From Alphaproteobacteria bacterium (GTDB taxonomy: Bacteria > Pseudomonadota > Alphaproteobacteria > RF32 > CAG-239): a stretch of 64,000 bases of DNA. Position 1 is the first letter of the stretch. The number at the start of each line of letters is the position of its first letter. The translations under genes and the position numbers were made by a program. The stretch lies in assembly GCA_017464685.1 (NCBI GenBank), contig JAFTYO010000008.1, positions 53,820 through 117,819 of the forward strand, written 5' to 3'. The notes below the pieces were generated by a model. The model did no database searches and was not told where the DNA came from. It saw nothing but the letters and a program-made list of their open reading frames with translations. Shown piece by piece: positions 5,812-12,433 of the stretch.

Positions 5812-5888
5812 CGGGACTTAGCTCAGCCTGGTAGAGCGCTTGCTTTGGGAGCAAGATGTCGTAGGTTCAAATCCTATAGTCCCGACCA
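5812..5888 (+). tRNA. tRNA-Pro (anticodon UGG), CCA encoded
   Basis: Folded by hand. Acceptor stem CGGGACT/AGTCCCG, D stem GCTC/GAGC, anticodon stem CTTGC/GCAAG with loop TTTGGGA, T stem GTAGG/CCTAT with loop TTCAAAT, discriminator A, then CCA. Confidence 0.93.
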
Positions 5889-6061: not shown

Positions 6062-7441
6062 CTATCCCCATACACTCTTCTTAGTGCATGTCTTCTTATC
6101 AGATGATAGCGTATATCCTGATTGGCAAGATTGGAGACATTTAAAAGTAAGAGTCTGATACGGATACTTACAGCTATAACAGCTACCCGCACCTGTCGGA
6201 CATGAATTAATCACCCCTCCAGTACAAGAAGAACAGTCACCAACATAATCAGGATCTTCCACACAGTAGTTCAACCCCCCTACTATTCCTTTCTTGTAAC
6301 CTGCCGGACAACTATAATCCTTGTATCTTTTTAATGACTCACCACTACAAGTTCCTCCGTCAACCGTGTCAATATACCCCTCGCAGTGCTCTCCTGTAAG
6401 AAGGTTTGGGTCTGTATTATTGCTGGTATATTGATATAAGCTTGGGTTACACAATTGCTTACAAGTTCCATTTAATGAACAATAACCAGCTGTACAACCG
6501 GAAGGTTCATAACATCCTGAAGAGTCAGAGCATACAGAACCCGGATTAGCACTTGTACATGCCAATTCTGAATCATATGTACAAGCTCTCTCACAACCTG
6601 TACCGGCAGCATTTTTTTGATAACCATCTTCACAATTAAATCCGGAATATTTGGTAGTCAAAGAACCGGCGCAATCTTTACCTGATGTACTATAATATCC
6701 GGTACATTTTTCGGATGATTCATTTGTACTTGCGTATTCCGGCAAATCAGGAGAACCTATATAATATTTATACACATCAGGATCGCAAATTTTTGCACAT
6801 TCATCAGTGGTTTTACAATATCCTGAACTACAATTAAATCCAGAATATACAGTAACCTGAGAACCTGAACAATCCCCACCGGATGTGCCTACGTATCCGG
6901 TGCAACTTCCGGTTAATGAACTAATATTGGCAGGTTTATTATTTTGACTATATTTATATACACTGCCATCACAGACATTATAACAAGCCGTGCCCGATTT
7001 ACAATAACCTGTTTTACAATTTGTTGGAGAAAAACACGTATACGCATCTTCTCTACATTCAAAATTTGTATAAGTTGTTTCGCATGTTTGTTTATCTTTA
7101 TAATCACAAACCACAGCGCATAATTTGAAGTTTTCATCACTGGGGCATGTTACAATTTTTGAACATGAAGAATCAAACTCAATATTTGTAAAACCTAATG
7201 CCTCGCAACTGACCACATTTCCGGCAACACATTTTTTATAATTTTGATTATACGGACAGTAAAGATATTTTGTACAACCATCTACATCTGTGTTAAAATA
7301 TCCGAGTTTTTCACAGTCAATAGCCGTCTGGCTGCTCGGAGTGCAACTTTCGGTTTCACCGGAATCAACCACACAAACAGTTGCATATACTGTTGAAGAC
7401 ATCCCCACAAGGCATAACAAAGTTAATATAAATTTTTTCAT
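6062..7441 (-). CDS. Secreted cysteine-rich repeat protein, paralog 1 (unknown function)
   Basis: The track ORF runs 6062-7453. I prefer the ATG at 7441 (MKKFILTLLCLVGMSSTVYA), because the GGAG inside the MEFA extension sits 6 nt upstream of it. It has a Sec signal peptide and very many Cys in repeated modules (C.GY..TS.G.C.G....Y.gF.C..GY.K). I recognise no known family. Confidence 0.75.
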   Translation of the reverse strand: MKKFILTLLCLVGMSSTVYATVCVVDSGETESCTPSSQTAIDCEKLGYFNTDVDGCTKYLYCPYNQNYKKCVAGNVVSCEALGFTNIEFDSSCSKIVTCPSDENFKLCAVVCDYKDKQTCETTYTNFECREDAYTCFSPTNCKTGYCKSGTACYNVCDGSVYKYSQNNKPANISSLTGSCTGYVGTSGGDCSGSQVTVYSGFNCSSGYCKTTDECAKICDPDVYKYYIGSPDLPEYASTNESSEKCTGYYSTSGKDCAGSLTTKYSGFNCEDGYQKNAAGTGCERACTYDSELACTSANPGSVCSDSSGCYEPSGCTAGYCSLNGTCKQLCNPSLYQYTSNNTDPNLLTGEHCEGYIDTVDGGTCSGESLKRYKDYSCPAGYKKGIVGGLNYCVEDPDYVGDCSSCTGGVINSCPTGAGSCYSCKYPYQTLTFKCLQSCQSGYTLSSDKKTCTKKSVWG

Positions 7442-7483
7442 AGCAAACTCCATAAAAATATATCGCGATTTTTACATACATTG

Positions 7484-7512
7484 ATTGTATATCAAATCTT
7501 AGCATTTTGCAA
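7484..7512 (-). promoter_or_regulatory. Putative sigma70 promoter of cysteine-rich paralog 1
   Basis: Read on the minus strand: TTGCAA (7512-7507), a 17-nt spacer, then TACAAT (7489-7484). An identical element precedes paralog 2. Confidence 0.55.
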
Positions 7513-7531
7513 TAAAAAAATGCAAATACAA

Positions 7532-7560
7532 AAGAGCGCCATTTTAACAATGGCGCTCTT
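7532..7560 (-). terminator. Rho-independent terminator of cysteine-rich paralog 2
   Basis: A perfect 12-bp stem (AAGAGCGCCATT / AATGGCGCTCTT) with a 5-nt loop is followed by a T-rich tract on the minus strand. It lies 25 nt past the stop at 7585. Confidence 0.7.
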
Positions 7561-7584
7561 AAGCAAGTTACTGAAGCAAACCCA

Positions 7585-9171
7585 CTATAGGTTATGGTTT
7601 TCATATTCTTGGAGATCTGCACACCTATTTGTATCCATTGTATAAATACCAGCGTTTTGTAGCATTTCTCTTTGTCCAGATATAAACTTGTTAGTAAACG
7701 TAGTATTTACCATATTGAATATATCTTTCTCACCTTTACAATACTCAAGGCTACCGCCGCCACCACCACCATTGTTCATGCTTCCTGATGTAGGTGGATA
7801 TACAGTACCTGTACAAGGCAGTGCTGAGTAATATGTATCATACCGAACCTTCCCTACCCACTCAAATTGTCCGGCATCGTTAAATTGATATTTGTTACAC
7901 CAAAGATCAACAAACGTGCCACTGGCACCAGAAGGGGTACACGGAATTGGAGTATCGTCAGGGAAACAATAGCTACAATGTTCCATATAACACTTTAAGA
8001 TGTTTTTGTTCAAGTCCAGTATATTAACAATTCCATCACCGCAGAATGTTTTTTCTGTTGCTGTCGGAGTTATCAAGCCTGCTGCTTCACAACTGCTATA
8101 TGCCGGTGTGCAAACACCATTGTACATAACAGCTTTTCCATGCGGACAATTACATATGCCACAACCGTTTGCATCAACATTTATCAATTCCGATGCATCT
8201 TCACTACATTCAGATTCGGTTACATAGCCTGTTTTACAGGTTGAAGGAACATAACACTCATCCAGATCTACGGTTGTATCAATATCACAATTAGAATGAA
8301 GATTTCTATCCAAACACTCTTGTTTATCAACATACGGACAAGTATCAACAACACAAGCTGTTTTGGCTGCGTTTTTCCGATATCCGGGCTCACACTCAAA
8401 ATCAGCATATCTATTTATGCCCTCACCGGAACAGTTGCCGTCAGAGTCTTTCAAATAACCCAAACAAACATCATCTGACATAATTGCATTTTCAATTTGT
8501 CCGGCAATAGGATACATCTCCTCATCACAAAGAGGCTGACATCTTGATTCCATTTTACAGTAGTTATCATAACAAATATAGTCTGCATATCTGAGCACCA
8601 CATCACCGGTGCAACTTCCTTGAGAGGTGCCGATATATCCCACACATTCATCTATCATTTCAGCGTTTTCAATCTGGTCCGAATAAGGATAATCGGTTTC
8701 ACTGCAAACAATGTTACAACCTGTACCGGTATCACAATATCCAACTTTACATCCGGTAGGAGCATAACAATTGTCAGATGATGAACACGATGCCCCCATG
8801 TGACGTTTTTCGCACAACTCTTGATCAACATAACAAACCGTAGCGCATAATGTAAGTGAGGCATCATTAGGGCATTCAACAATTTTTGAACACCATTTAG
8901 ATTTGTCGAGACTGTTAAAACCATACTGAGCGCAATCTACACCACTCGTACCATATACACATTTTTTATATTCAGGATCAAAAGGACAATAAATATAATC
9001 CAAACAACCGGTAACATCAGATTTTGAATATCCGAGAGTTGTACAGTCACCCGATGGATTTGGATTATCAAGACAACTATCATCTCCGCCGTAATCTTTC
9101 AAACAGGTAGCACCATATGCAACCTGAGATATACCGATAAGGCATAACAAAGTTAATATAAATTTTTTCAT
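7585..9171 (-). CDS. Secreted cysteine-rich repeat protein, paralog 2
   Basis: The track ORF runs 7585-9183. I prefer the start at 9171 (MKKFILTLLCLIGISQVAYG), preceded by the same GGAG. Its N-terminal module (C..LGY..sDV.GC..YiYCP....YKKCV then C...GF.....s.CSKIV.CP.D....LCA) is collinear with paralog 1. A poly-Gly tract lies near the C-terminus. Confidence 0.75.
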   Translation of the reverse strand: MKKFILTLLCLIGISQVAYGATCLKDYGGDDSCLDNPNPSGDCTTLGYSKSDVTGCLDYIYCPFDPEYKKCVYGTSGVDCAQYGFNSLDKSKWCSKIVECPNDASLTLCATVCYVDQELCEKRHMGASCSSSDNCYAPTGCKVGYCDTGTGCNIVCSETDYPYSDQIENAEMIDECVGYIGTSQGSCTGDVVLRYADYICYDNYCKMESRCQPLCDEEMYPIAGQIENAIMSDDVCLGYLKDSDGNCSGEGINRYADFECEPGYRKNAAKTACVVDTCPYVDKQECLDRNLHSNCDIDTTVDLDECYVPSTCKTGYVTESECSEDASELINVDANGCGICNCPHGKAVMYNGVCTPAYSSCEAAGLITPTATEKTFCGDGIVNILDLNKNILKCYMEHCSYCFPDDTPIPCTPSGASGTFVDLWCNKYQFNDAGQFEWVGKVRYDTYYSALPCTGTVYPPTSGSMNNGGGGGGSLEYCKGEKDIFNMVNTTFTNKFISGQREMLQNAGIYTMDTNRCADLQEYENHNL

Positions 9172-9214
9172 AGCAAACTCCATAAAAATATATCACGTAT
9201 TTTTACATACATTG

Positions 9215-9243
9215 ATTGTATATCAAATCTTAGCATTTTGCAA
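9215..9243 (-). promoter_or_regulatory. Putative sigma70 promoter of cysteine-rich paralog 2 (duplicate of 7484-7512)
   Basis: The same TTGCAA-N17-TACAAT element, located inside the 112-bp repeat copy at 9141-9252. Confidence 0.55.
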
Positions 9244-9309
9244 TAAAAAAATCTTGCATAAGAAGAGTTAATATTTTAATTTAACAGATATGTAACAGAA
9301 AGGATAAAT

Positions 9310-10095
9310 ATGAAAATAATATATTGCGGTGATGTTGTCGGACGTTCAGGCAGAGATGTTGTACTAAAAAACATTAAACATATACAAGAAAAATATGCAC
9401 CTGATGTTATTGTTGTAAACGCCGAAAATGCAGCTCATGGTTTTGGCCTAACTCCGTGTATTTGTCGTGATTTTTTTGCCGCAGGTGTCGATGCAATTAC
9501 AACCGGAAATCATGTTTATGACCAACGTGAAATTATCCCTTTTTTAGATGATTGCAAAAAAATTGTCAGACCGCTTAACTTTCCTGAAGGCAATGTCGGA
9601 CGCGGTATTTGCGAAATAGAAACCGCTAACGGCAAAAAACTTTTGGTTGTTCAGGTTATGGGACGCGCATTTATGGAAGCTCTCGATTGTCCGGTTCAGG
9701 CTTTGGAAAAAGTGTTAAAAAACTATATTTTAGGTGCCAATATATCAGCAATTTTGGTTGATATTCATGCTGAAGCCACCGCCGAAAAACTCAGTTTTGC
9801 CTATTTGTTTGATGGCAAGGTTTCTATTGTTGCCGGCACGCATACCCATATTCCAACTGCCGACGCCAGAATTTTACCTAAAAAAACTGCTTATATAACA
9901 GATGTCGGAATGTCCGGTGATTATAATTCCGTTCTCGGTTTTGAACCTATTGCCTCAATCAGAAGATTGTGCAAAAAATTTCCATCTGAAAGGCTGGTGC
10001 CGGCAAAAGGAGAAGGTACACTCTATGCCATATATGTCACAACCGACGACAAAAGCGGCTTGGCAACACATATCGAACAAATTGTGCTAAAATAA
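9310..10095 (+). CDS. ymdB: YmdB-family metallophosphoesterase (2',3'-cyclic-nucleotide phosphodiesterase-like)
   Basis: 261 aa. Motifs MKIIYCGDVVGRSGR, VVNAENAAHGFG, TTGNH and GTHTHIPTAD are typical of the YmdB/TIGR00282 calcineurin-like family. Confidence 0.8.
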   Translation: MKIIYCGDVVGRSGRDVVLKNIKHIQEKYAPDVIVVNAENAAHGFGLTPCICRDFFAAGVDAITTGNHVYDQREIIPFLDDCKKIVRPLNFPEGNVGRGICEIETANGKKLLVVQVMGRAFMEALDCPVQALEKVLKNYILGANISAILVDIHAEATAEKLSFAYLFDGKVSIVAGTHTHIPTADARILPKKTAYITDVGMSGDYNSVLGFEPIASIRRLCKKFPSERLVPAKGEGTLYAIYVTTDDKSGLATHIEQIVLK

Positions 10096-10112
10096 TTTTC
10101 ACATCATCCTAA

Positions 10113-11870
10113 CTATGAGCAAGTTCCGTAGTCTTCATCTACACCCGTACAAGTTTTTGTAAAGGTGCCACTGCACTCAGACCTTGGAGTACCCGAGCAA
10201 AGCTTGGTGTAACATACTTTACCAATTGTGGGGCTTATAGGGACATACAGACCGGAATCTTTATCTACATTACTATAATCATCATAATCATAGTATCCCG
10301 CAATAGCACAATCTCTTATGTACCAACACCCGTTGGACCCTTGTCCACATCTATAATTAATGTAAGCCTTGATACAATCAGTTTCTGTTTCATATGTGCA
10401 TTTACATTCACCATATACCACCCATCCTTTTGCAGTACAAGTGGGTGTGAAATCTTTATCACAGGTAGCTTCCGGAACACCTTCACAAATGTTTTTGTAG
10501 CAAGTTTTTCCCATTAGCCCTACTTTTTGGGTAAACATATAAACACCCGAATATATATCTATATCATCTCTTGCATCATAATCATACATGCCGGCAGCCT
10601 CACAAGTTTCATAAAACTTATGTTTTTCTTCGCAACAAGCCTTTATTTCACCTTTATTCGTTGCGTACAAATAGCAGTTTTGATAATTATATTCATCCGT
10701 AGCAGAACATGTGTACTGATAAGGAGTTTCGGAACAACTAGAATATTCAGAAGAGCAATATCCGCAACCATTGCTATCTTGTCCGGCAAGTTTTGTGTAA
10801 AAAAATTCTCCGCTGCCACATTTATCAACATAGGTTATATCGGTTTGAACACAGCCCTCTACACTGGTATGATAACCTTGAGCGCATCCTTCAGGTTTCC
10901 AGCAACCGTTACGACCTTGAACACAATTAGAATATTTGTTAAAACGCAAGCACCATTTTTTGGTAGGATATGGACAATCATCAGACTTTTCACAAAACAG
11001 ATATTTAGAATTAAAAATACATTTCATACCTTTGGTACCATCAGAACAAAGCCCGTCCCCCTTATCCAGAGTTGTATACCCAAGGGCTTGGCAATCGGTA
11101 GTGGTGGTAGGTGTTACGCTACAAAAATATCCGGCCAAATTTCTATTACCTGAAACAGGACAAATTTCAGTTCCGCAAGAATAACAATATCCGAGACCTC
11201 CGCCTCTGTCTACATTATCCAACATACGCGTACAACCTGTCGAGTTCTCTGAACAAGGTTCCGTCGTCCAACTGTCTGCACAATCGCAAAAGCTATAAAA
11301 TGATTTTCCGGTACTATCCGTACATTTTGATGCCAATTTGGATTCTTTTAGCCCTTTTTCCTTGCAATCATAAGGGTAAAGAGTTTCCGAACATCCGCAA
11401 GATTTGTAATGAGGAGTTCTATCTGCCGGATCAACACACGAATCAGCAGCAGAAGGATATGTTCCACTATATTCACCACAGCTTTCAAAAGGATAAACTC
11501 GGGTGTTGCAATAAGTATGTTCGGCAGCACAACCGCAAGTGGCATCATAATCTCCCCTGCATATATAATCATTGCTCGGCATAGCATAATTACCCGATTT
11601 ACAGGTACATTTATAATACGTCCTTCCGTTTTTCTTACATGTTTCAGAATTATAATTTGAAGGGCAAGGTGTGGTTCTGGTATATCCATCGCAATCTGTA
11701 ACAACCTCTCCGACCATGCACCCATCTCCGGCTAACACTCCGGGTAAAAAACAAACTTTTGCATCTGCATTGTAAGGATACAGCGACAATAATAAAAAAA
11801 GACAAACTGCACGCAATTTATACATACCGAATAACCCTAAAAATTTAAGCTGTTTTAAAGAGTATACCAT
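10113..11870 (-). CDS. Secreted cysteine-rich protein, paralog 3 (more divergent)
   Basis: 585 aa with a hydrophobic N-terminal signal; a later start at 11825 (MYKLRAV...) is possible. It is extremely Cys-rich and shares the C..LGY...D and GC..P.GC..GY modules with paralogs 1 and 2. It also carries an internal duplicated module (C.aAG.YDYD....D..SG.Y.....iGK.CY...C). Confidence 0.7.
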   Translation of the reverse strand: MVYSLKQLKFLGLFGMYKLRAVCLFLLLSLYPYNADAKVCFLPGVLAGDGCMVGEVVTDCDGYTRTTPCPSNYNSETCKKNGRTYYKCTCKSGNYAMPSNDYICRGDYDATCGCAAEHTYCNTRVYPFESCGEYSGTYPSAADSCVDPADRTPHYKSCGCSETLYPYDCKEKGLKESKLASKCTDSTGKSFYSFCDCADSWTTEPCSENSTGCTRMLDNVDRGGGLGYCYSCGTEICPVSGNRNLAGYFCSVTPTTTTDCQALGYTTLDKGDGLCSDGTKGMKCIFNSKYLFCEKSDDCPYPTKKWCLRFNKYSNCVQGRNGCWKPEGCAQGYHTSVEGCVQTDITYVDKCGSGEFFYTKLAGQDSNGCGYCSSEYSSCSETPYQYTCSATDEYNYQNCYLYATNKGEIKACCEEKHKFYETCEAAGMYDYDARDDIDIYSGVYMFTQKVGLMGKTCYKNICEGVPEATCDKDFTPTCTAKGWVVYGECKCTYETETDCIKAYINYRCGQGSNGCWYIRDCAIAGYYDYDDYSNVDKDSGLYVPISPTIGKVCYTKLCSGTPRSECSGTFTKTCTGVDEDYGTCS

Positions 11871-11911
11871 AAAACACGAATCGTCAAGAATTTTAATTTA
11901 AAAAACAAAAT

Positions 11912-12433
11912 TTATTGTACTCGTTCTTTCAATTCCAACACATAATTAATGACTTTGCTTTTATCCCAAGTTTCACTTCCTCTCAAACGCCCCACTTCTT
12001 GACCGTTAGTATTAATAATTACCGTATGAGGAGTGGTAAAAATCCCGAAATCGGCGGATAAATCATTATTCTCTTCAACATAAAACTCCAAATCGGCAGC
12101 TCCGTATCTTTTTAGGAAACGACTTTGTTCACCGGTATCAAACCATTCTTCTTTTGGAGAAATCAGAATCAGACGAACACCCTTATCTTTTACTTTGTTA
12201 TGAAAATTGTTAAGGCTTTTAAGTTCTTTTATGCAAGGCGCACAAGTTTTTGACCAAAAATGGGCCAAGACAAAATCTCCCTTAAAATCAGACAGTTTGA
12301 AACTTAGGCCACTTTGATGCATGATTTTGCTTTGCGGCAAGCTTCTGGGTTCGGAATAAATGTTTATGGCCGCATTTGAAACCGCAGAAAAAAGCATTAA
12401 AAAAACTAAAAGAACAATAAGTTTGCTTTTCAC
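11912..12433 (-). CDS. TlpA/ResA-family periplasmic thiol:disulfide oxidoreductase
   Basis: 173 aa with a signal peptide and a thioredoxin-fold active site (FWSKTCAPCIKE, a CxxC motif). Confidence 0.8.
   Translation of the reverse strand: MKSKLIVLLVFLMLFSAVSNAAINIYSEPRSLPQSKIMHQSGLSFKLSDFKGDFVLAHFWSKTCAPCIKELKSLNNFHNKVKDKGVRLILISPKEEWFDTGEQSRFLKRYGAADLEFYVEENNDLSADFGIFTTPHTVIINTNGQEVGRLRGSETWDKSKVINYVLELKERVQ

Follow-up and report, generated by a model that had tools for sequence, protein, structure and literature searches.

Cysteine-rich modular proteins of small-genome gut Alphaproteobacteria: predicted Sec export and a candidate adhesin-like role

The stretch of DNA considered here, called the window, covers 64,000 nucleotides of contig JAFTYO010000008.1 (positions 53,820 to 117,819 of the forward strand), from an alphaproteobacterium of the RF32; CAG-239 lineage. 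It contains three minus-strand genes for extremely Cys-rich proteins, designated p1, p2 and p3 by rising window coordinate. Judged by sequence, they belong to a previously undescribed, lineage-specific family of small-genome gut Alphaproteobacteria. Somewhat better than even confidence is placed in the reading that p1–p3 are Sec-exported, disulfide-stabilised, adhesin-like mosaics, exposed at the surface or secreted, in which a conserved N-terminal part presents variable binding regions. Few bacterial proteins reach ∼10% Cys with at least 50 residues predicted to form disulfides; here such proteins appear to make up a complete toolkit specific to one lineage of uncultured gut Alphaproteobacteria of humans and other animals. 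An earlier sequence-only reading of the window had singled out the same three genes; its observation is confirmed and its interpretation partly supported.

Genes, modules and subfamilies

The three open reading frames (ORFs) had been described as encoding signal-peptide proteins in which Cys is among the commonest residues, and this is borne out: the ORF-track versions contain 49 (10.6%), 49 (9.2%) and 60 (10.3%) Cys in p1, p2 and p3. These are the three highest Cys contents among window ORFs of at least 200 residues, where the runner-up has 4.0% and the median is 0.9%. The true starts are likely internal to the ORF-track versions, as read from the sequence. In p1 and p2 the likely start is the second ATG (MKKF…; 7441 and 9171), six bases past a GGAG, and p1 counted from this ATG has the same length, 459 residues, as database entry P0001. 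In p3 the likely start at 11825 (MYKLRAV…) agrees with all homologues. Signal peptides of the Sec type can be read in all three proteins: an n-region with K/R residues is followed by a hydrophobic core and then by a cleavage site resembling A-x-A (VYA|TVC in p1, AYG|ATC in p2 and ADA|KVC in p3), and no lipobox is seen. The C-termini are hydrophilic and Cys-rich and show no transmembrane segment on sequence reading. The G+C content of the genes (0.36–0.40) resembles that of their surroundings (genome, 37%). Long ORFs at 37% G+C, conserved Cys, positional orthologues in other species and promoter-like, Shine–Dalgarno (SD) and terminator signals together indicate that p1–p3 are real genes under constraint.

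Three kinds of module emerge from motif mapping of p1–p3. Two tandem copies of module N (C-x2-LG[YF]…C…CP…YKKC) stand right behind the signal peptide in p1 and p2. Module A has the pattern C-x-Y…C…C…C[YWF]-x-P-x2-C-x2-GY and module B the pattern C-x-GY-x-GTS-x-G-x-C-x-G…Y…F-x-C-x2-GY. The two motifs quoted in the sequence-only reading, one containing LGY and CP, the other GY and GTS, are literally present in p1 and p2. Following the signal peptide, p1 is arranged as N-N'-A-B-B-A-B with a short cEGF-like tail, and p2 as N-N'-A-B-B-A with a unique C-terminal region of ∼200 residues containing a Gly6 linker. In p3, the signal peptide is followed by a conserved p3-type N-domain of ∼280 residues that ends in a degenerate N module, then by module A, a variable region, a second module A and another variable region.

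In the AlphaFold 2 (AF2) model of p1, computed from a 95-sequence alignment (mean predicted local distance difference test, pLDDT, 65), the N modules (pLDDT 86–92) and both A modules (78–95) form confident small β-hairpin units. As the sequence-only reading had surmised, no bacterial family is recognisable: Pfam and NCBIfam scans of p1–p3 gave nothing above threshold (noise-level cEGF, PLCC, Phage_sheath_1 and KdpC), sequence and profile searches of the PDB with three family alignments were empty, Foldseek searches were equally without a significant match, and no description of this protein family was found in the literature.

The proposal that p1 and p2 are recent duplicates did not hold. They are 40% identical across the first 331 residues; all 34 p2 Cys in the region common with p1 pair with p1 Cys, and identity at non-Cys positions is 31.6%. 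The suggested dN/dS comparison gives a nonsynonymous divergence (dN) of 0.64 and a synonymous divergence (dS) of ∼1.39, a ratio of ∼0.46 that is not informative because dS is near saturation. Near-identity is confined to a 113-bp cassette at the 5' end. On this sequence evidence, p1 and p2 appear as old paralogs with a conserved Cys scaffold.

Neither are the three proteins equivalent paralogs, as had been assumed. BLASTP matches of p3 to p1 and p2 are marginal (E 1e-3 to 4e-5), phmmer does not pick up p3, and motif mapping reveals only modules N and A in common. The single degenerate N copy of p3 lies at residues 245–278, at the end of its N-domain; in the homologue P0010, the p3-type N-domain terminates at the same position in a canonical 'DCSALGYTQSDDENCDNYLYCPFDTSYKAC' module, which supports the link of p3 to p1 and p2. 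Thus, as far as sequence can tell, p3 represents a distinct subfamily. A single hidden Markov model (HMM) built from all three proteins was dropped, p3 not being alignable with p1 and p2 beyond modules N and A, and separate profiles were used. The family defined here by its 'LGY-CP' N-module has a signal peptide and, immediately behind it, C-x2-LG[YF]-x(4-9)-C-x(3-7)-C-P-[FY]-x(3-5)-Y-K-x-C, as a rule in tandem with another, degenerate copy. Both p1 and p2 display the complete arrangement and match the alignment-built HMM with E 1e-40 and 2e-43, respectively.

Distribution, head exchange and a diversified sibling

A word-indexed search of 5.8 billion proteins returned 4 matches for p1 and 11 for p3, and an exhaustive HMMER search with the p1/p2 profile against 1.84 billion cluster representatives returned 255 at E ≤1e-3, of which 151 at E ≤1e-10. 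Most of the 255 match via the N-module at their extreme N-terminus. In a survey of 40 related genomes, seven of them from the source genus, the p1/p2-type family is missing from none of these seven and is also carried by 3 of 18 further genera of the bacterial family; none was found in the searched genomes outside that bacterial family. The p3-type N-domain is present in six of the seven congeners and in two of the other genera that carry the p1/p2-type family. The 65 loci found in GTDB representatives stem, save for one bin, from gut or faecal metagenome-assembled genomes (MAGs) labelled Alphaproteobacteria, from humans, rabbits and other animals. A host-associated lifestyle, which the sequence-only reading had thought fitting, is therefore upheld, all relatives being gut or faecal MAGs. 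The deviating bin is labelled Lachnospiraceae (CAVBCV01 contigs; L038, L045, L046, L062, L065, L071 and L075). Its seven N-module loci are of the kind that typifies the gut alphaproteobacterial clade, and it is probably mislabelled or chimeric.

The idea of an expanding family also proved right, in that this is a lineage-specific multigene family with 1 to 43 matches per genome. The source assembly (G000; 1.38 Mb, 85% complete) has ∼10 members, namely five N-module proteins, one p3-type protein and several more Cys-rich ORFs with module A or a 'KVCFL' N-terminus. Two adjacent Cys-rich ORFs precede the window by ∼12 kb (G000 C39:39127-41405). The first (428 residues, 10.7% Cys) combines an LGY module and module A with an N-terminus of the p3-like 'KVCFL' kind; the second (336 residues, 8.9% Cys) has module A. 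G009, a 1.6-Mb genome from another genus of the bacterial family, has 43 N-module matches, mostly in ORFs of 350–420 residues, the size class of N-module plus DUF1566 proteins; this is a large expansion for so small a genome. Elsewhere in the source assembly, two Cys-rich frames consist of perfect short tandem repeats (C16:15894-16550 and C42:9925-10287; …RFVINHRLCVRYFYL… and …HRLCRCY…). They resemble translated tandem DNA repeats rather than members of the family.

In 77 ORFs from 65 loci the N-module is found at ORF position 18-81, right behind the signal peptide, and the same placement is seen in most of 150 representatives among the matches listed. What follows it varies, being either Cys-rich modules (8–11% Cys) or a non-Cys domain (3–5% Cys). 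In the source genome, for example, the siblings C1_88711 (E 2e-7) and C37_57414 (E 3e-4) combine the N-module with an Lcl_C/DUF1566-like domain, below gathering score. Likewise, the p3-type N-domain is joined to DUF1566 in P0006 and P0008 (for P0006, an assignment by database annotation), to other Cys modules in P0007 and P0014 and to a β-helix-like region in P0010. P0006, with a p3-type N-terminus, and C37_57414, with a p1-type N-module, have nearly identical DUF1566 heads, and this indicates that heads are exchanged between N-terminal types. Giant relatives of 1,000–3,000 residues (10–11% Cys) also begin with a signal peptide and N-module. Three of them (P0054, P0065 and P0089) were considered as autotransporters and rejected, as none matches a Pfam domain at E ≤0.001 and each ends in a Cys-rich C-terminus unlike a barrel.

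One sibling of the source genome is the target of a diversity-generating retroelement (DGR), located outside the window at G000 C37:55110-58643. The target is C37_57414, with its N-module and DUF1566 head. The variable repeat (C37:57414-57526) forms the last 113 nt of the target gene, and the template repeat (C37:56834-56946) lies ∼470 bp downstream. The two repeats differ by 17 mismatches, 17/17 at adenines of the template. Next to them are a reverse transcriptase of the RVT_1 type (C37_55457_56806, 66 bits) and an ORF resembling bAvd (C37_55110_55478); within the window, no DGR element was noted adjoining p1–p3. In this sibling the N-module thus serves to carry a hypervariable head predicted to bind ligands. 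Of the indirect arguments that the family faces outward and acts in binding, this is the strongest.

Export, redox partners and alternative explanations

In the proposed scheme, Sec would export p1–p3, and DsbA-family proteins would oxidise the ∼48–59 Cys of each chain in the periplasm. A reductive branch fed by DsbD would mend wrong pairs, possibly via the TlpA-like redoxin encoded next to p3. The product would be a rigid, protease-resistant, disulfide-knotted rod, whose conserved N-terminal part would act as a common stalk or as an attachment or export module and whose variable C-terminal part would bind host, dietary or microbial ligands.

The redox inventory of the genus accommodates this scheme in part. 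DsbA-family proteins are present in 7/7 genomes, with two ORFs in the source genome that have a signal or anchor and a CGYC or CSHC motif, and DsbD_TM is also found in 7/7. DsbB, VKOR and Cytochrom_C_asm each gave 0/7, control genomes being positive in every search. A DsbA without a partner has a precedent in Staphylococcus aureus.

Several observations weigh against the adhesin-like reading. Without DsbB or VKOR, the re-oxidation of DsbA for ∼50 Cys per chain has no explanation, and the mature p3 chain has an odd number of Cys (59). In the p1 model, the B repeats and tail have pLDDT <50, and the p3 model (11 homologues) reached a mean pLDDT of 41 and was neither interpreted nor used for fold searches. 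No outer-membrane anchor, lipobox, β-barrel or type IX or type I secretion signal is visible in p1–p3; with no recognisable route across the outer membrane, the proteins could stay periplasmic. The sole secretin of each genus genome, encoded in the window at 57983-59617, belongs to a type IVb-pilus-like cluster. A type II secretion system (T2SS) as export route is therefore unsupported, that cluster not being a classical T2SS. In the window, the cluster (57202-63998) comprises a TcpQ-domain protein, the secretin, a PilO-like accessory protein and a T2SSE ATPase.

Some of these observations lend credit to an alternative that is nevertheless considered improbable, namely that p1–p3 are periplasmic thiol or metal handlers. 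In an anaerobic gut bacterium lacking DsbB and VKOR, their Cys would then be mostly reduced, and the proteins would act as metallothionein-like buffers of metal, sulfide or redox state, or as envelope cross-linkers, kept reduced via DsbD and the redoxin. This would fit the lack of DsbB and VKOR, the missing outer-membrane route, the constant position of p3-type genes directly downstream of the redoxin and the presence of DsbD and a TlpA-like reductant without cytochrome c maturation, i.e. a reductive branch devoid of known clients. However, the module-specific Cys spacing, the conserved aromatic and Gly residues and the predicted β-hairpins are typical of disulfide-rich folds, and the CxC/CxxC clusters of metallothioneins are not seen. 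The Cys number in mature p1 and p2 is even (48 each), N-module siblings carry lectin-like and DGR-diversified heads, which are normally outward-facing binders, and exported DsbA-like oxidases are present. Further, the redoxin gene belongs to the core set, and its occurrence has no phyletic link to that of the family. If the proteins were reduced or bound metal, they would have a different, equally undescribed periplasmic function.

The redoxin deserves separate comment, as the sequence-only reading had suggested that it supports oxidative folding of its neighbours. The flanking of ymdB (PF13277, E 2e-93), which lies between p2 and p3, by the Cys-rich genes and the presence of an adjoining CxxC oxidoreductase were both found as described, and the latter belongs by Pfam to the general Redoxin/AhpC-TSA family. 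The folding role is weak. The redoxin gene is a single-copy core gene in 24/25 genomes of the bacterial family, the majority of them without Cys-rich proteins, and is present in all genera devoid of these; in the congener G005 it adjoins ymdB without p3; and redoxins of the TlpA/ResA type are reductants, not oxidants. A dedicated oxidative-folding partner was therefore rejected. What remains in favour of a link is the fixed adjacency: in all seven searched genomes with both genes, and likewise on three additional contigs from metagenomes, the redoxin gene is followed at once, ∼90–100 nt away and without change of strand, by the p3-type gene, whose C-terminal half and downstream neighbour vary. 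Since the VWA-PP2C-kinase operon upstream of the redoxin is likewise fixed, this adjacency may be the positional relic of one insertion. Still, the constant position of p3 and the absence from the genus of the usual client pathway, cytochrome c maturation, leave room for proofreading: the redoxin may plausibly reduce or isomerise mispaired disulfides of such clients, with DsbD as its likely electron donor.

Table 1. Coordinates of features at the Cys-rich locus of the window
Feature	Coordinates	Strand	Remarks
p1, predicted Sec-exported Cys-rich mosaic, 459 residues, 48 Cys in mature chain	6062..7441	-	alternative ORF-track start 7453 (6062-7453, 463 residues)
p1 cassette copy, 113 bp	7409..7521	-	promoter-like TTGCAA-17-TACAAT, 5' untranslated region, GGAG, ATG, first codons
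Terminator-like hairpin, 12 pairs and T-run	7532..7560	-	between p2 stop and p1 promoter
p2, predicted Sec-exported Cys-rich mosaic, 528 residues, 48 Cys in mature chain	7585..9171	-	alternative ORF-track start 9183 (7585-9183, 532 residues)
p2 cassette copy, 114 bp	9139..9252	-	112 positions identical to p1 copy
p3, predicted Sec-exported Cys-rich protein, 570 residues, 59 Cys in mature chain	10113..11825	-	alternative ORF-track start 11870 (10113-11870, 585 residues)
Possible p3 promoter, TTGACG, 15-nt spacer, TGgTATACT (extended -10)	11861..11887	-	consensus reading alone; scan with 16-18-nt spacers did not list site
TlpA/ResA-like predicted periplasmic thioredoxin-fold redoxin, signal peptide, CAPC motif	11912..12433	-	Pfam/NCBIfam

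The 5' cassettes (Table 1) include the first 11 codons when counting begins at MKKF, or 15 when it begins at the ATG further upstream; beyond them p1 and p2 diverge abruptly. Both promoter hexamers and a 23-nt block with the SD sequence and start are kept upstream of orthologues in two other species, where overall identity is ∼70%. This cross-species conservation, together with the near-identity of the p1 and p2 copies, indicates that the cassette is under functional constraint and homogenised within the genome, by gene conversion or replacement of 5' ends. The hairpin between the two genes resembles an intrinsic terminator and would make p2 and p1 separate transcription units. The possible p3 promoter, situated between the redoxin gene and p3, overlaps the ATG at 11870 and so makes this start less likely. 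A tRNA-Pro(UGG) gene (5812-5888) is located 174 bp beyond the stop codon of p1, so that p1 and p2 are placed between this tRNA and ymdB. In congeners, the ymdB flanks contain one p2-like gene (G005, G002) or a p3-type gene (G006), and no Cys-rich gene was found within 8 kb in G003, G004 and G001. The differing gene content points to a variable site where members come and go, and the tRNA-Pro/ymdB locus may be an integration or recombination hotspot.

Such mobility invites comparison with variant surface coats. It is conceivable, but unlikely, that p1–p3 form a coat for evasion of immunity or phages, analogous to the variant surface proteins (VSPs) of protists, in which many interchangeable Cys-rich coats would be switched or reshuffled through recombination at conserved 5' cassettes and modules. 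Cassettes that are 98% identical although the coding regions are synonymously saturated would be expected of such a coat, as would the range from 1 to 43 matches between genomes, the heads swapped between N-terminal types, the gain and loss of members at the ymdB-flanking locus and the DGR-diversified sibling. Nevertheless, the locus shows no sign of a switching mechanism: neither invertible promoter repeats nor homopolymer tracts were seen in p1–p3, and the genes are each equipped with an intact promoter-like site, which would allow both to be on together. The source genome, moreover, has only ∼10 family members.

A bolder proposal extends the adhesin-like reading to a whole clade of anaerobic gut Alphaproteobacteria and is accorded only a small chance of being correct. 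It postulates an 'extracellular matrix-style' toolkit of combinatorial disulfide-knotted mini-modules. The N-module would be a new surface-attachment or export tag for interchangeable heads, be they Cys-rich rods, DGR-diversified lectins or multi-kilobase arrays. Homogenised promoter/signal cassettes would allow coats to be exchanged through recombination, and folding with DsbA, DsbD and the TlpA-like protein, but without DsbB or VKOR, would imply an unknown disulfide-generating route.

The likeness to EGF domains noted in the sequence-only reading is real but generic. The best Pfam match is cEGF (PF12662) in the p1 tail, at residues 442-457 (E 0.0025, 18.1 bits versus a cut-off of 26.6), and hmmscan gave no EGF-family match for p2 and p3. 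Foldseek searches with the p1 model gave nothing at E ≤0.001, the best values being E 0.19 in PDB and 0.085 in BFVD, and the PDB list consists mostly of eukaryotic EGF/TNFR-type arrays (NELL2, uromodulin, CD97, Pfs25, Notch) at E 0.19 or worse, probability ≤0.15 and TM-score <0.3. As judged from the model, this is a generic structural resemblance, not demonstrated membership. That p1–p3 are host mimics, i.e. true EGF-family domains acquired from eukaryotes by horizontal transfer and engaging host EGF-domain receptors, is the least credible of the explanations: the cEGF matches, below threshold in the p1 tail and above it, at 37 bits, in the relative P0131, and the EGF arrays topping the Foldseek list speak for it, but no module of p1–p3 reaches a Pfam threshold, the structural and PDB profile searches yield no significant support, the bacterial N-module architecture prevails among all 255 relatives detected and the genes have the G+C content of the genome.

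If the adhesin-like reading is true, modules N, A and B and the p3-type N-domain would be new domain families with which hundreds of 'hypothetical' gut-metagenome proteins could be annotated. The N-module would be a candidate for a new surface-anchoring or export module, common to DGR-diversified binders. The question would then be posed of how dozens of disulfides per chain are made with DsbA and DsbD, in cells without DsbB or VKOR.

Comparison with known systems

Among systems described in other organisms, EGF/cEGF arrays (fibrillin, uromodulin, Plasmodium Pfs25) head the Foldseek list, if without significance. They belong to secreted proteins, as p1–p3 are predicted to be exported, and share with them tandem, Cys-dense β-hairpin modules of ∼30–40 residues with a 'C-x2-GY' hairpin motif. 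The Cys counts and spacings of N, A and B nevertheless depart from the 6-Cys EGF signature, and the distribution of the present family is purely bacterial and lineage-restricted.

At the level of gene families, the resemblance is to Giardia VSPs and the immobilisation antigens of ciliates, which likewise have ∼10% Cys and a signal peptide, are mosaics of short Cys modules and form multigene families of variable copy number in an organism living in the gut. Yet p1–p3 have no match to Pfam VSP, even at E up to 1, and, unlike Giardia VSPs, they are not dominated by a CxxC periodicity, lack a transmembrane helix with conserved tail at the C-terminus and are bacterial.

The adjacent redoxin resembles TlpA, ResA and CcmG in its thioredoxin fold, its N-terminal signal or anchor and its CxxC, and matches Redoxin, AhpC-TSA, TlpA and ResA models. 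It differs from them in scoring far under the equivalog cut-offs (63 versus 230 bits for TlpA, 60 versus 170 for ResA and 28 versus 123 for DsbE), none of which is reached, and in belonging to a genus that lacks cytochrome c assembly.

A bacterial precedent for such envelope proteins exists in chlamydial OmcA and OmcB, which are Cys-rich and Sec-exported and confer disulfide rigidity in a host-associated diderm with a small genome. Pfam reveals no sequence relationship with p1–p3, and the modular mosaic and variable heads are absent from OmcA/OmcB.

Another parallel is with the DUF1566/Lcl_C adhesins and DGR variable proteins, such as Legionella Lcl and the Treponema TvpA-type targets with a C-type-lectin fold. 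Lcl and TvpA are anchored by collagen-like repeats or lipoprotein signals and are not known to have a Cys-rich N-module. Lcl_C (no match to PF07603) and a DGR are both missing from p1, p2 and p3, but siblings in the source genome and in relatives join the same N-terminal modules to an Lcl_C-like head.

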